DNA of 64,000 nucleotides from positions 107,632,001 to 107,696,000 of the forward strand of contig OX597819.1 in NCBI GenBank assembly GCA_951406725.2, given 5' to 3'. This DNA is from Octopus vulgaris. Lineage: Eukaryota. Numbering within the stretch: the stretch's first letter is position 1; every line of letters starts with the position of its first letter. A program made the position numbers and the translations under genes. Shown one piece after another: positions 8,288-61,805 of this stretch. The notes beneath the pieces are model-generated. The model worked only from the letters and a program-made list of their open reading frames with translations, was not told the DNA's origin and searched no databases.

Positions 8288-8586
8288 TACAAGGGGGAAA
8301 AGTCAAAGTAATTAAACAGGCTCTTTCCCTTCCGACTATCATATCTTTGAACCGCTCAAAGATCGTTTACGACGTCGTCGGATGAAAATGTGAAAGAAGC
8401 TGTGCATAAATGGTAGCATGACCAACCGAAAACCTTCTTCTTAGAGGGAAACTTATGGATCACTGGACCAAGTACATCGAAAAGGAAGGAGGCTGTATAG
8501 AAAAATGATGTACTTGCTTATCTCCTGCTTTTGTGTAAATACATTGTAAAACTAAGAGTGCGGATCATTTTTCACTCACCCTCGTA
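8288..8586 (+). mobile_element. Internally deleted mariner element
   Basis: Translates as PSDYHIFEPLK..SDENVKEAVHKW*HDQPKTFFLEG..WTKYIEKEGGCIEK* (mariner C-terminus); ends TACAAGGGGG.. / ..CACCCTCGTA resemble TA-flanked TIRs. Confidence 0.75.
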
Positions 8587-8747
8587 CTTGAGGTTATCGT
8601 TGGGTTTGCTGTATTGATGATATTAGCTCGTACTGAAATCCAAAGTAACGTCGAAGACGTTAACTCTATGTTCTTTCTCAATGGATATACCTTTGAAACA
8701 TTTGAATAACTTTCTCCTATACTTTTCTAAATTAAAATTATTAGATT

Positions 8748-8890
8748 TTTATTCCGCCGAGGTCGACTTTGTCTTTCATCATTCAGGGTCGACCAAATAA
8801 GTGCCAGTTGAACTCTGAAGTTCATGTAATCAACTTACCCCCTCACCCCCGAAATCGCTGGCCTTGTGCCAAAATTGGAAATCAATATCA
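8748..8890 (+). mobile_element. SINE family B fragment
   Basis: TTCCGCCGAGGTCGACTTTGTCTTTCATC..GGGTCGACCAAATAAGTGCCAG matches 63848-64000. Confidence 0.75.
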
Positions 8891-9739
8891 TTAGAAGATC
8901 TATATATTGCAAATTGAGTGTCATTCCTATATAATCTCCGCCCCAGTAACGGAAATTCGTTTTTATATAAAGTAAGATATAGATAACAACGAAGTCCGTT
9001 ACCTGAGCAGAATTGCTGGATCCTAAGCTAACGTCGAACATATAAGGCCTGTCTTTTCTTACTCAGTACTCTCTCTCAATTCCAGCAATGCATTTTCTTG
9101 CTTTTTTCTGGCCTTGCTCCAAAATTTGAAATCAATAGAATGTCTAATTCTTGTTTGGATAAACTTGCATTTTATAGCCTTATCAGGCTTCTAATTATTT
9201 CTCTCATTTCTTTGAACTCAAAACTAATCGATCCCTACTAAAATATAAAGCTATCTAAACTGTTACACTTCAATTCGCTTCAAACTTTAACATTGTCAGC
9301 ACCTTCAATAAAGCTGCATGGACACGTATTTAACCTGATGGACATATCTCACATTCTTTTACTCATTACCTTCTCATCTTTTCCTCTCCCTCACCCACAC
9401 CTCTCCCATCCTTCCATCCTCCCATCACATGATCTTGACCACTAAATAACACACTCTCTCTCACTTTCTTCACCATTTCTTACCTTTTTTCACTCTTTTT
9501 TTCACTCTTTGTTTTTCTGTCTCCCTTTTTTTTCTTTTTCTTTTTCTCTCTTCCTCTCATTTTCTCTTCCTGTTTTAGTTTTAGCCTTTCTCCTCTTTCT
9601 AATCATACACATCTCTCCTCCCTCCATCTATCCATAAATGCTACCAATTCATTCTCAAACTTTCTTTCACACCACTAAACCATTTCGAATGAGCAACACT
9701 GATTCCACGGCTCCATACTTTGAAATGACTAAATATAAA

Positions 9740-22418: not shown

Positions 22419-22469
22419 GACGTTTCAAAACTGCTAGTTAATTACCGTATATTAGTGTTGCGTCGTCAG
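22419..22469 (-). ncRNA. Hammerhead core downstream of the Penelope ORF, family H; stems degenerate
   Basis: CTGACGA..GAAAC-GTC on the minus strand about 350-400 bp after the GIY-YIG end. Confidence 0.5.
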
Positions 22470-22799
22470 TATTTGTGCGTTAATCTACGGTCAATATAAA
22501 CTTTGCACATAAAGCAAAATTTAAACATTACCAGGTAATTTTTATAGACAGATAATTTATATCAAAACTAAGTACACTAAATTTGTAATTATTGTTAAGA
22601 CGATATGTTTAGTCTCAAATTTAGTTTTAATAAATTATTATAAGAATTTCAACACTATATTTATGAGAAGCTTGTCAATTGAATTAATAGTAAAATACCA
22701 AAACCTCGGCACGTATAGAAGACATAATCTCCATCCACACCATTTAACTAATATATTATATTACATCTACTAACCATTTTTAACGCTTATCAACAATAT

Positions 22800-23911
22800 T
22801 TAATGGTAGTTTCTCAGAGCCCATATACCTGCATATATTAAGATTAAGAGATGTCTCCTAGAATATAAGATCGAAAATAACTTTTCTAGACAAAGAAAGC
22901 AAAAGGAGATCCCAGTCTTATAAGCAGGTGCTTTGCTTGTAATCTCCCATTCCATAGAAAAACATTTTTTCCTTCTCCTTCAAGTCTCTAATAAATTCAC
23001 TGAGGCTGGTAGAAGACCGGCTCCTATTATTAAAGGTGTAAATATGGTTAGAGACGCGCTACTTAACAAAGTTTTACGTAGCTCCTATATAATAGAAACT
23101 TTTACGCTCAGGTATCACCTTATATCTGTAAATAAAATTCTTTTGATTACAATAATTTTTAAATAAACGTTTACTTCTAATCCTACAATCGCAAAAAGTA
23201 TTTTCATTAGTGCTCGCATTCTTATACTGCTTCCATCATTACATTCAGTATAATTCCTATTTACCATTTCATTAACATTCAAGAGGTTGGGGTGGGATTT
23301 AACACTGATTGAATCCCCTAGTACACTTAACGTCCCAAACTTACTTTCATTACTAACATTTATTCCATTAGTATTACTCTTATAGCGTTTACGACTATTA
23401 GAATTATTAGGAAAGTTAGATAATTTTCTGTCGTTAATTGAAGATAGAATCTGGCATGAATTATTAGATACGGCTTTTTGTATTCCGTTATTCGCATTCC
23501 TGATAATACAGAGACGATTACAAAAACGAAGTAATATATTGTTTCTCATATTTTGCATTTCATTTTTCACATTTTGACATTTAAATTTACCTACCCTTTG
23601 CTTATTCCCATTCCTGGCTATTTGTTTAAAATCATTGTTAATATAGGAAACATCTATGTTGTTGGAGGTGCTGACGCCCATATTTTTAGGATAATATTGT
23701 TTGTATCCATCTTTACTAAGTGCCACATTACAATAGTGGGAATTTTTGTCAAAAATCTCCTTATCAGACGATAAATTAGAAATTGTTGATGATTGCTTTC
23801 GACACATATACTTAAGATTGGAGTCGGGTTTGATGTATTGTTCATATTTATCTGAAATGAGATTAAGATTAACATCAAGGAAGTTAACAGATTTATGTTC
23901 GTTTTCAATTG

Positions 23912-23912
<1 letters not shown>
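22800..23912 (-). pseudogene. Penelope-like retroelement ORF remnant (RT C-terminus, linker, GIY-YIG endonuclease), 5'-truncated at (TA)n
   Basis: VNFLDVNLNL..YIKP..SNH / ISNLSSDKEIFD..ALSKDGY; CNQKNFIYRYKV..YYIGAT*..RVSNH; WEITSKAPAY..CFLCLEK. Confidence 0.85.
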
Positions 23913-23955
<43 letters not shown>

Positions 23956-24195
23956 TTTTTAAAAGTAGGATAAAATTTTTATAAGAAATTATCAAGTAGC
24001 TAGCGTGAAAAACCTCATAAGGGAAAAATTTATTAATTATTCCCTTTAAATATATTTATTTATATTAAGGGCATTACTATACATAAATGCCTCACGCTAG
24101 GAGGGAATCTAAAAGTCAACACTACCATAATAAACACATTTTGTACCGAACGCGAGGGAATGAAACTCTCGAAGCGAGCCTTTTAAAAACAGCGC

Positions 24196-24247
<52 letters not shown>

Positions 24248-24248
<1 letters not shown>

Positions 24249-24485
24249 CTATGTTACATTACTCGGTAGTCATAAAACTCTGAGTTTCAGATGCCGAAGT
24301 GGAAATCCACAACACCATCTCTTCGGTTATCTCGGAGATAACCGAAGAGATGGTGTTGTGATTTCCACTTCGGCATAGATTTATCTTGACTACCGAGTAA
24401 TGTAACATATTGTATAGATAAATTTCCTCTATTTACATAATATTGAGGTCTCTTTCTTTCTTTTGTTATCTTACCGTTTTATCAA
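24248..24485. mobile_element. Palindromic HHR-like element between (TA)n tracts, family I
   Basis: Palindrome centred at 24334; minus 24272-24330 ATAA-CCGAAGA-GATG..CATCT-GAAAC-TCAGA-GTT-TTAT; homolog at 51245-51445. Confidence 0.65.
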
Positions 24486-25744: not shown

Positions 25745-26182
25745 TACATATACAAACTCACATACATAATACATACATACGCACATATGTTTGAGCGAAT
25801 ATGTGTCTTAAAAATATTAAATCAAAAGTTTTTATTTAAAATCTCTTAAATTAGAGGAAGGAGGTTAAATTACGGAAGGAGGTTTCTATGTAAGCAGTTT
25901 CCGCTCTTTTAAGCTTTTCAACTATTCATGTTTTAAAGTAAACTGTACAGTAGTACTTCCAAAGATTTTTTTTACATAATTGATAATTTTTTATTTCAGA
26001 AAATCTTTCTTTCAAATATAGTGACTTTGTTAATAAATCTTTGTATAATACTTTCTTAATATGCATGTGTGTATAAATATAAATATAAATGTATACATAA
26101 GTATATATGTATGTGTATACGTATGTATATATGTGTATGTACCTACGTAGCTAATGTGTAAGGTATATATATATATATATAG

Positions 26183-26353
26183 GAAAAATTTAATCATTAC
26201 AAATTGTGACTGAGGCTGCTAAATAGTAACTATATTTCAAGAAATAGGAGTTAAAATCCCTTAGTGCTTCGAGTTTACAACTGATAGACGAAACTAATCT
26301 AGTCCAGTGTGCTGCTAGCTTCGCTCATAGGGCGGTTATCTCCCTTCTCAGTT

Positions 26354-26426
<73 letters not shown>

Positions 26427-27065
26427 GCACTGAGAGGGGAGATAACCGCCCTATGAGCGAAGCTAGCAGCACACTGGACTAGATTAGTTTCGTCTATCAG
26501 TTGTAAACTCGAAGCAGTTCCTACTCCATGACGTGGATGGGTTGGCTGAATCGATCTGTCAATATATTTACTTACCATATAAATTGGTGGCTGGTTTAAC
26601 GAAATGCTAATGTGTTTAGTAAAAATTGATATAAACAGTTAAACGCAATATAAGAGGAAGATATAACTTCACTAATTGTGACTGGGGATGCTGAATATCC
26701 CCTATATTGTATGAGTATATGGAATAGGCACTACTGGCGAGTCTACAACGTCATGGTGCGGTTATCTCTCTTGTCAGTGTATATATATTATGCGTTGCAT
26801 ACAGCATTAAGAGTTTTAACTCTTATTTCTTGAAATTTGAAATCATCCGAGTGATGGAGTAGGCACTGCTGACGAGTCTACAACTGATAGACGAAACTAG
26901 TCTTGTCCAGTTCTCCTAGCTTCGCTCCTGGGCGGTGGTTATCTCTCCTGTCAGTGTATAGATATTCTATGCTGCATACAGCATTAAGGGTTTTAACTCT
27001 TATTTCTTGCAATATAAGTGCTATTCAACACCCTCAGTTACAATTAGTGACGATTGAATTTGTCT
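26183..27065. mobile_element. Rearranged multi-copy HHR element, family K
   Basis: Terminal inverted about 85 bp (26183-26268 vs about 26980-27065); essentially perfect inner inverted repeat 26265-26352 / 26429-26516 around (TA)n; tandem copies at about 26720 and 26855. Confidence 0.75.
26865..26911 (+). ncRNA. Type I hammerhead ribozyme, family K
   Basis: ACTG-CTGACGA-GTCTA-CAACTGA-TAGAC-GAAAC-TAGTCTT-GTC-CAGT; canonical core, G-C closing pair, GUC site. Confidence 0.9.
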
Positions 27066-27134
27066 TTTTTGGTCTTTTATTGCACCTTCTGTTTGTCGAT
27101 ATAAATATACCTATTTTGTCATATAGTATGACAT

Positions 27135-35844: not shown

Positions 35845-37085
35845 TCACATTGGCTTGGTAGGTCCGGGTTCATAAAGCTTTGATTTTTAGCAGCTAATAT
35901 GAAAACTTCACTCTCTGCTTTTAGCCCTGAGCTTCGTAACATTGATGCGTGTGTTTCTGGTCGACGTCATCTTGTTTGCTGCGGGCCACATATTTGCATG
36001 CATAGATTTCTGTTCCCATCTGCTAGCTAATTTTTCATGTGCTTTTGTCTTAGCAATTAATTTTATTTTCTTTGTAGCAGCTGTTGGCACATTTCCTTCA
36101 ATTTGGTAGGTATCTAAGAGATCAGTAGCGAATGTTTTGCACTCTTTCAGAATAGAGTGAAGTTTTTTCGGTCTTTCATGTTTTTCAACAAGATTTAGCA
36201 TCCAATCGTTGGTTGTTTCAGGGTATTTGGCCAGTCCGATTGTGGTGGTTTCGTACGTAAGGTCAAGCTGGATCAAGCTTCGACCTCCCAGAGCTCTGGG
36301 AAGGTAAAGACGATCCACGTCTGCCTTTGGATGGTGCATCTTATTACAAATCAGTAGCTTGCAGATTTTTCTATAGATTTTCATTATTTCACTGGTATTC
36401 CAGTTAAGCACATTGAAGCTATAAAGAACAACTGGGACTGCTAAGGAATTTATGGCTAACACCTTATTAAATGCATTCAGCTCAGACTTCAGGACTGCTC
36501 GAACTCTTCTATAACATTCCTTCCTAACCTTCTCTTTCGTGCTTGCACGCTGGATACCAGAACCTTCATTTATTCCTAGGTATATATATATATATTTATT
36601 CCTAGTTCCTTTATTACTGTTTCGACATCTAATTCGATTGAACTTGACTTTACCAACTTCTCTTTCTTAAAAGTGGCTTTGGCACACTTTTCAAGGCCAA
36701 ACACCATCCCGATATCATCACTGAATCCTTTCACAGTATGTAATAATCCTTCAAGCTCTTCATCATCTTCGTCATATAGCTATAAATCATCCATTTAAAA
36801 CAGATGGCTTATTTTCCTGTTGTCAATTTTGTAGCCACACCCTGTTCTATTCAGTTCACTTGAGTGGTATTAGTGCTATGCAGAAAATTAGTGGTGAAAG
36901 TGAGTCACCTTGGAAAATGCCACAGTTTATGCTAATATTGTTTGAGCACAATACTCCATTAGAATGATATAATTGGAGCTTCGTGTTCCATAGCGATATA
37001 TTATACTTTAAAAAATCTGAAATCACAGGAGAAATTTTGAAAATGTCCAACGATTTCAGAATCCACGAATGTGGCATGCTGACAA
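35845..37085 (-). pseudogene. R4/Dong-like LINE reverse transcriptase remnant
   Basis: MPHSWI, GIFQGDSLSPLIFC, HLF*MDDL, YLGI, AINSLAVPV, RLYLPRALGGR motifs. Confidence 0.85.
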
Positions 37086-60499: not shown

Positions 60500-61805
60500 T
60501 ATTTTTTCCCTAGTTTCAGCTCAGAGCTGCGGCCATGCTGATGCACCGCCGTTTTGTGCGACACTGTTATTACGACGAACCTCGTCTAATATGTAGCACT
60601 TGGTGAAGAATGGAGTTTGATACAGCTACTCTCATTTGCACCTCTTGCCGTGAGGTAGGTTCATCTGGGACTCTTGACAGGAAGATGTCCAGCTTTGATT
60701 TAAAAACCGCTACATCTACTTTGTGCAAGTTCCTCAGACTCTTTGGGGAAATATTAAAAAGCTGTGGGCCCTTGAAACCCAGGCTGTTGCAGAAGCTGGT
60801 CCTGAAGCGTGATGGCATTGCTGGGATCTTTGGCACTATGCAGTGTCGCCCCGTTCTAGCATTGGTGTCGCTTACAATGCCAAAATTTGGCACAATTCCT
60901 TCCCGTCTTCTTCCCAGGGAGTAGAGTCTTAGCTGTTTCAACCTTTCCCAGTAGCTGAGCTGTTGCAAAGAGACGATCTTCTTTGTGAATCTTCTCTGGA
61001 TTGCTTCAAGGTCCGCTGTTAATTTTACACTGGTGGGTGACCATAGCTGTGAGCAGTAATCCAGGCGGCTGAGGACGAATGTCCGCCAGAGGACCATCAT
61101 GGTTTCTTTATCTCTGGTTCTGAATGTTCTTAGGATCCACCCAGCCAGTCGTCTGCACTTTGTCGCCATCCTGGTAATGTGCACTTGGAAAGAGGTATCA
61201 TCACTCATGTCGATACCCAGGTCCCTCACAGACTTAGGCTCTGGGATTGAAATTCCCTGTGGATCGGTGTATCCTGTAAGTTTAATATTCAGTTTTGGAT
61301 GCTGGTAGCGCAGGGCCTGGAATTTTTCAGCATTAAACTGCATATTATTATCCTCAACCCATCTGTAGATTGAGTCCAACTCCTGCTGCAGGTGTGCAAC
61401 ATCGCTGGGGTTCTGTATTTTCTGCGAGACTTTCGTATCGTCTGCATAACTTACCAGAGTGGCTATCCGGGCATTTGAGGACATATCTGAGAGGGCCACT
61501 ATAAAAAGCAGTGGTCCCAAGACAGTGCCCAGTGGAACACCGCTCACTATTTGTGTGTTCATAGAGGTGGCTCCATTAACCACAACTGTCTGACTCCTAT
61601 CTTTCAGGAAGTCATGCAACCACACTCCAAGTTTTCCAGCTATGCCGAGGTCACGTAGTTTGTGGCATATCATACCATGATCCACCTCGTCAAACCTTTT
61701 GCAAAATCAAGGTAGATTACGTCCACATTTGATTTGTTGAGTAACTGCCTCAACACCCAGTCATAATGCTGTAAGAGCTACTTTTGGAATGTTGGTTGAG
61801 ACGAT
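60500..61805 (-). mobile_element. 5'-truncated CR1/L2-group LINE (RT ORF 60570-61685 plus short 3' UTR)
   Basis: VIYLDFAK/VDH, SGVPLGTVLGPLLF, YADDTK, RDLGI, RLDYCSQLWSP. Confidence 0.9.

Follow-up and report, generated by a model that had tools for sequence, protein, structure and literature searches.

A decayed copy of a dispersed 346-nt hammerhead repeat in the genome of Octopus vulgaris

Layout of the locus

We examined a stretch of about 0.9 kb (positions 26183-27065, in a region of 35% GC) of the Octopus vulgaris genome; the window is the whole 64-kb stretch of DNA that was analysed around it (107632001-107696000 of contig OX597819.1). In the genome, 38 haemocyanin domain matches of mollusc type were counted, and seven of these follow one another at C5:96.83-96.84 Mb; octopods typically have seven such units in each gene. 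The first-pass annotation had described a cassette of four hammerheads in mixed orientations. The features are real and not a product of chance, but as independent ribozymes the four do not hold up: every piece of the stretch maps onto one 346-nt non-coding unit. The stretch is a single decayed copy of a scattered 346-nt hammerhead repeat, an ordinary element and no four-ribozyme device. Unit positions are numbered from the predicted cleavage site, and the parts are as follows.

26150-26160, minus: 11-bp match to unit ~204-214, a possible tail remnant of the minus copy (weak; from sequence reading and repeat comparison)
26164-26181, no strand: (TA)9 at the 3' end of the minus copy (from sequence reading)
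26182-26268, minus: 3' part of the minus partial tandem, unit ~70-172, continuing 26420-26709; 90 of 109 aligned columns equal the consensus
26265-26353, plus: fold-back arm, an inverted duplicate of 26428-26516 with the damaged core CTTCGA
26354-26427, no strand: (TA)n spacer, expanded from the unit's internal TA run at ~47-55
26420-26709, minus: 5' part of the minus partial tandem, unit 104 through the monomer junction to 55; 107 of 120 columns equal the subfamily A consensus
26514-26509, minus: hammerhead remnant in the minus copy with the damaged core CTTCGA
26719-26836, plus: first plus piece, half a hammerhead and then unit 19-107, head-to-head with the minus copy
26840-27094, plus: second plus piece, unit 280 through the junction to 187, after a 172-nt skip; 203 of 224 columns equal the subfamily A consensus
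26860-26918, plus: type I hammerhead with core and stem II intact and mismatches at 26904 (stem III) and 26912 (stem I)

The minus copy, about 1.2 units long, begins at 26709 (unit 104), reaches unit 55 where the (TA)n tract lies, resumes with unit 70 at 26268 and continues to unit 172 and (TA)9. On the plus strand, unit 292-323 is followed by a deletion of about 41 nt, unit 19-107, the 172-nt skip, and the run from 280 across the junction to 187. The two strands' copies meet head-to-head at 26709/26719, their 3' ends pointing outward. The terminal inverted segments of about 85 bp reported earlier do exist (26183-26268 and 26980-27064, 81% identical over 86 bp); rather than dedicated TIRs, they represent the 3' parts, directed outward, of two copies lying head-to-head. 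The pieces differ by about 10% from the subfamily A consensus and are 75-90% identical to one another, in keeping with a single old insertion. In a tree of 95 projected segments, the two from the window fell in the subfamily A part without pairing, which is uninformative on a single template, and a TSD search around the cassette gave two 6-mers as its best result, neither convincing. An ORF combining RT and GIY-YIG is present in neither the cassette nor the unit, and the cassette is not an autonomous Penelope-like element (PLE). Rfam matches to miRNA, snoRNA and pestivirus models were set aside as generic hairpin or TA matches below gathering scores. Elsewhere in the window, two LINE-like RT remnants of 378 and 252 codons (60570-61706 and 35908-36666, both minus) were identified by eye.

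The canonical hammerhead called earlier at 26865-26911 does retain a type I core, within 26860-26918 on the plus strand. The 5' strand of stem I occupies 26860-26868 and the core CTGACGA 26869-26875; stem II pairs 26876-26880 with 26888-26892, followed by GAAA at 26893-26896 and stem III at 26896-26906. Cleavage is predicted after C26907, with NUH at 26905-26907. The type I sequence of CUGANGA, GAAA and NUH in that order is found here and in none of the other three remnants. Against Rfam Hammerhead_1, 26863-26913 scores 22.3 bits (E=0.064), short of the gathering score of 34, and one pair has been lost in each of stem I (26912) and stem III (26904). In the folding models, the hammerhead structure of the window copy lies at +1.8 kcal/mol against an MFE of -13.3 kcal/mol, with stem II pair probabilities of 0.02-0.03; holding the core unpaired yields another predicted fold, with the hammerhead still disfavoured. 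The family consensus with its core held unpaired is predicted to adopt the three-stem fold. The one core-intact hammerhead of the window is not predicted to fold, and the locus today is predicted to be an inert fossil.

The proposed derivation of stem III from ACTAG-T-CTAGT agrees with the family stem III consensus, ACTAGTCTAGT. The damaged tandem copy reported about 135 bp upstream is likewise present, 26719-26749 being 90% identical to 26854-26884 at a distance of 135 bp. It amounts to half a hammerhead: the core reads CTGGCGA, and the ~41 nt with GAAA, stem III and the cleavage site are absent. The 135-bp spacing is a product of internal deletions, the true period being 346 nt, and a dimer of two complete consecutive hammerheads, as an active retrozyme copy would have, is absent from the window.

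The two CTTCGA copies form an inverted repeat around (TA)n as described in the earlier annotation, with arms (26265-26353 and 26428-26516) that are identical at 87 of 89 positions, perfect over the first 80 bp and separated by a 74-bp TA-rich spacer, for a span of 252 bp. The left copy is a duplicate of the right one, without most of the stem I 5' strand. Arm identity is 98%, compared with 75-90% for other pairs of pieces, and the arms share derived variants, namely the CTTCGA core, a change in stem II and a 2-nt insertion. The left arm sits in place of unit 56-69, the minus copy resuming at unit 70 beyond it, and is joined to the minus copy by a 4-nt microhomology (26265-26268). Because the left arm is too similar to the right arm for the age of the insertion, shares its derived variants and is joined through microhomology, the palindrome is best read, from its sequence, as a later fold-back duplication of one damaged copy and not as element design.

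For the palindrome only, there is a small chance that the left arm was created at (TA)n by an error of assembly or sequencing. The 80 perfect base pairs stand in a locus otherwise decayed by about 10%, and the geometry is rare: inverted flanks were found at 3 of 470 TA-rich runs in 535 kb (one of them low-complexity) and at 0 of 470 controls. However, the arms differ at three places along their inner edge, where now one arm and now the other has the consensus state, and this, together with a microhomology junction that cleanly replaces about 15 nt, argues against an artefact. A second palindrome lies in the window at 24250-24409, where perfect inverted pairs of 26, 17 and 23 bp are nested around 24334 between TA runs.

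The repeat family and its sister

An iterated consensus gave a period of 346 nt, without an ORF or PLE-like coding similarity. Searches of the 2.8-Gb genome with the plus copy and with relatives of 411 and 678 bp returned 599, 839 and 896 candidates, respectively, on many contigs, which indicates a family of at least 600-900 candidate copies; since the best 40 of each set were scored, rare arrays or young copies may be missed. After removal of 29 duplicates from 92 fetched loci, 63 non-redundant loci were retained, with main matches 75-93% identical to the consensus (median 82%). Copies are mostly 0.5-2 units long. More than one unit is present in 45 of 83 loci, where copies longer than 346 nt run into a second copy of the unit and not into an ORF or a longer UTR, and more than two units in 1 of 83, the longest tandem measuring 2.1 units. 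Both core motifs are kept in 15 of 46 near-full copies.

The ends of the copies are asymmetric. The 3' ends fall at unit 140-215 in 51 of the 63 loci, compared with 12 of 63 for the 5' ends, and at unit 185-212 in 30 of 63, a clustering partly shaped by the queries; the 5' ends are spread over the whole unit. None of the 63 loci had its 3' end 20 nt or less from the cleavage site. When the 5' part of the unit served as query, 30 loci were fetched, of which 20 were new; their ends were more scattered, with 6 of 20 at 140-215, and none of the 20 ran past position 203 of a second unit. Runs of (TA)4 or longer accompany 28 of 63 3' ends, 9 of 63 5' ends and 88 of 1260 control positions, and any microsatellite 42 of 63 3' ends compared with 158 of 1260 controls. 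An inverted piece stands head-to-head at the 5' end in 27 of 83 loci, and a tail-to-tail pair in 1 of 83, the window itself, whose palindrome thus has no counterpart in the other loci.

A sister family, first met beside a PLE (L075:500-745) and represented by loci L142-L171, has a period of 340-341 nt, 515 candidates and 233 of 351 columns identical to the first family (66%). It has the same core and the same TA-flanked 3' end, with rewritten stems I-III. Three helices closing the core, with an open-ended stem I, are present at the family level. Across 49 aligned copies, 83.2% of cells in the 18 hammerhead pairs were paired, compared with 19-37% in slid controls. Changes on both sides of a pair occurred in 35 cells against 18.5 in shuffled data, with 0 of 500 shuffles as high, a cell count that related copies inflate; pairs with a both-side change numbered 9 against 8.0 shuffled, not above the control. 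The changes follow subfamilies, with A-U/G-C at the first stem I pair and C-G/U-A in stem II. The circular consensus is predicted to be strongly self-paired (z of -8.8 over 60 shuffles), as is that of the sister family (z of -7.0 over 40 shuffles). The compensatory stem changes, the sister family's stems and the predicted structured circles indicate that the source elements were selected for the hammerhead and for structured RNA. An alifold of the two consensuses with 12 both-side changes was not leaned on, as it was run without a control and partly missed the hammerhead stems. In these respects, a 346-nt unit without an ORF, a type I hammerhead with covarying stems and a strongly self-paired predicted consensus, the earlier view of the unit as retrozyme-like stands.

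Could the pieces be 3'-end (pLTR) remnants of an extinct autonomous PLE, with no separate 346-nt mobile unit behind them? Hammerheads are located in PLE pLTRs (PMC4209133), and in other PLE families of the genome a hammerhead-like motif stands just ahead of the TA-flanked 3' end. Nevertheless, we consider this origin improbable, given the entry of long copies into another unit copy in the 45 of 83 loci mentioned above, the period kept by the sister family, and a masked all-against-all comparison of 55 loci in which only other common repeats were found beside the unit.

The first-pass annotation had favoured a short-period tandem or satellite array scrambled by template switches. The unit size and hammerhead type are indeed those of animal tandem retrozymes (PMC7229834), head-to-tail junctions occur frequently, and the locus shows at least one local template switch. 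That the locus is a piece of a retrozyme satellite array, rearranged in situ by repeated switches, is nonetheless very improbable. The period is 346 nt and not 135 bp, the copies are dispersed, and many regular head-to-tail copies were found neither in the window nor among the scored loci. The genome search suggested earlier did recover copies; it did not recover an array, the 1.9-unit query finding no regular array and no other locus that covered it fully among the best 40 of 896 candidates. Tandem Repeats Finder reported no 135- or 346-bp array in the 64-kb window, and the inverted 5' piece is an insertion trait of the whole family. The template switches of the earlier reading do survive as the likely cause of the inversions.

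A host-adopted RNA device, combining a long hairpin as a source of dsRNA or small RNA with a working ribozyme, could draw on the hairpin that the 252-bp palindrome would form if transcribed and on the window copy being one of only 2 exact genome matches to a degenerate 32-nt consensus core pattern, itself designed partly on that copy, but it is scarcely credible for a copy as decayed as its relatives (203/224), with two stem-breaking changes, a hammerhead fold predicted to be disfavoured even with the core unpaired, and Rfam miRNA matches that are generic hairpins below gathering scores.

Proposed origin and search for a mobilising partner

With good confidence, we read the locus as fragments of a dispersed 346-nt repeat that probably arrived in a single old insertion of PLE type, mobilised in trans, and that then probably decayed and underwent one fold-back. 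The family displays the traits of PLE-type insertion, namely variable 5' truncation, partial tandems, an inverted 5' copy and microsatellite 3' ends. In the proposed sequence of events, a highly self-paired source transcript would have cleaved itself at the hammerhead, giving circular or multimeric RNA. A GIY-YIG endonuclease would then nick a TA-rich site, and the RT would start about 200 nt downstream of the cleavage site, read across the monomer junction and switch strand, leaving a partial tandem with an inverted 5' copy. The losses of about 41 and 172 nt, together with point changes, would have come next. Later, the internal TA run of the minus copy may have expanded and folded back, so priming a copy of the neighbouring 89 nt, and rejoining of the template at the 4-nt microhomology would have replaced about 15 nt.

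A broader reading, which we put forward tentatively and hold to be possible rather than probable, is that the genome contains several unreported canonical-hammerhead retrozyme families of 340-350 nt, spread as dispersed PLE-type insertions that terminate some 200 nt downstream from the cleavage site and cross that site without a break. If true, the ends would be the footprint of a PLE RT initiating at a fixed point on re-ligated circular RNA, and a head-to-head fusion with a Neptune-like element at locus L056 would hint at the partner enzyme. There, an old Neptune-like PLE fragment (L056:633-1376) lies inverted against the 5' end of a unit copy, and neither TA nor any other microsatellite separates the two; this single case could be a co-insertion.

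Intact PLE ORFs in which RT and GIY-YIG-like regions are recognisable do exist in the genome. Queries with the proteins of two PLE fragments retrieved Neptune-like and other PLE families, with thousands of candidates. The Neptune-like family shows RVT_1 and a weak GIY-YIG match, and its clade name is a putative one that we give from the linker motif as described in PMC8557442. In 64 loci and 15 longer stretches around PLE ORFs, a small sample of the thousands of candidates, the unit was absent save for nearby separate copies in L063 and L075. Across the 83 family loci and 28 loci of the sister family, the unit was never linked to an ORF lying in line upstream. In L025 and L161, the PLE remnants present upstream of family copies finish in 3' regions of their own, and beside L013 and L018 the Neptune-like ends are embedded in TA runs internal to the unit, where they appear to have inserted later.

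The neighbourhood of the cassette contains PLE sequence of its own. A decayed, 5'-truncated Penelope-like RT/endonuclease remnant (22845-23912, minus) begins at a (TA)n tract and is followed downstream, at about 22420-22470 (minus), by a motif resembling a minimal hammerhead; we rejected it as a partner, since the hammerhead-like motif near 22470 belongs to it and its insertion is a separate one. A further PLE remnant is present at 8584-9101 (minus). At 23962-24198 (minus) is the 3' end of another, younger repeat family (L205-L223; about 92% identical, 2298 candidates), whose other copies have an upstream type I hammerhead-like motif with a palindromic stem III and (TA)n ends, some of them being tandem or inverted. 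Outside the window, young autonomous PLE families with open frames of 900-1200 aa occur in tandem and inverted arrangements (L093-L096, L129-L131 and L140), with hammerhead-like motifs before their TA-flanked 3' ends. Two more short partial-tandem repeats with type I hammerhead-like motifs (L114:130-440 and L091:1800-2330) end at (TA)n.

Comparison with known systems

PLE expansions have been reported in cephalopods (PMC13282606, PMC8967140). The words 'ribozyme' and 'hammerhead' are absent from the main text of both papers, and the repeat library of PMC13282606 may already list the family. A literature search for cephalopod hammerhead retrozymes found no report, although the supplements of Li et al. 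2026 (10.64898/2026.07.22.740005) may list the family.

Paired hammerheads have precedents in PLE remnants, for which motifs 100-700 bp apart on opposite strands have been noted (PMC4209133). The hammerheads of Schistosoma resemble those of the window in their type I topology and in often occurring singly, or else paired 100-700 bp apart on opposite strands. Unlike minimal hammerheads, the core-intact one of the window is canonical, its stem III being full and its stem II 5 bp long. Dimeric cleavage in PLE tandems has been reviewed (PMC6765202), and 8 of 9 genomic retrozyme dimers did not cleave in the work described by Li et al. (10.64898/2026.07.22.740005).

Animal non-LTR retrozymes have units of 350-390 bp in mussel and of 330/350 bp in axolotl (Cervera and de la Pena 2020, PMC7229834). 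The octopus unit agrees with them in its length, 346 nt falling within 150-450 bp, in low GC and the lack of an ORF, and in its canonical type I hammerhead, strongly self-paired predicted circle and co-existing PLEs. However, retrozymes occur as dimers to multimers, whereas the 346-nt family, as far as its top-scoring candidates show, consists of dispersed partial tandems of 0.5-2 units with inverted 5' pieces. Helix III, usually 1-2 bp in retrozymes, is 4 bp in the 346-nt family and 5 bp in its sister. Unlike animal retrozymes, the family yielded no young copy among the scored candidates.

PLE anatomy comprises 5' truncation, partial tandems, an inverted 5' copy and a microsatellite bias that hides TSDs (Craig et al. 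2021, PMC8557442). The family shares with non-autonomous PLEs and pLTR repeats (PMC8557442; 10.64898/2026.07.22.740005) the truncation, the partial tandems and the inverted 5' copy, as well as microsatellite-flanked 3' ends without clear TSDs and a hammerhead in the repeated end. In contrast to non-autonomous PLEs, it has no similarity to the end of any autonomous PLE sampled in the genome.

Retrozymes have been proposed to derive from PLE ends, in a study that did not sample molluscs (Li et al. 2026, 10.64898/2026.07.22.740005). The proposal that they are PLE passengers has so far rested mainly on co-occurrence in vertebrates and on Xenopus pLTR homology (10.64898/2026.07.22.740005). The 346-nt family is a retrozyme-like and probably PLE-mobilised element, and its insertion anatomy supports the view that animal retrozymes are non-autonomous passengers of PLEs. 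Its hundreds of insertions with mappable ends offer a way to test where the RT starts relative to the cleavage site.
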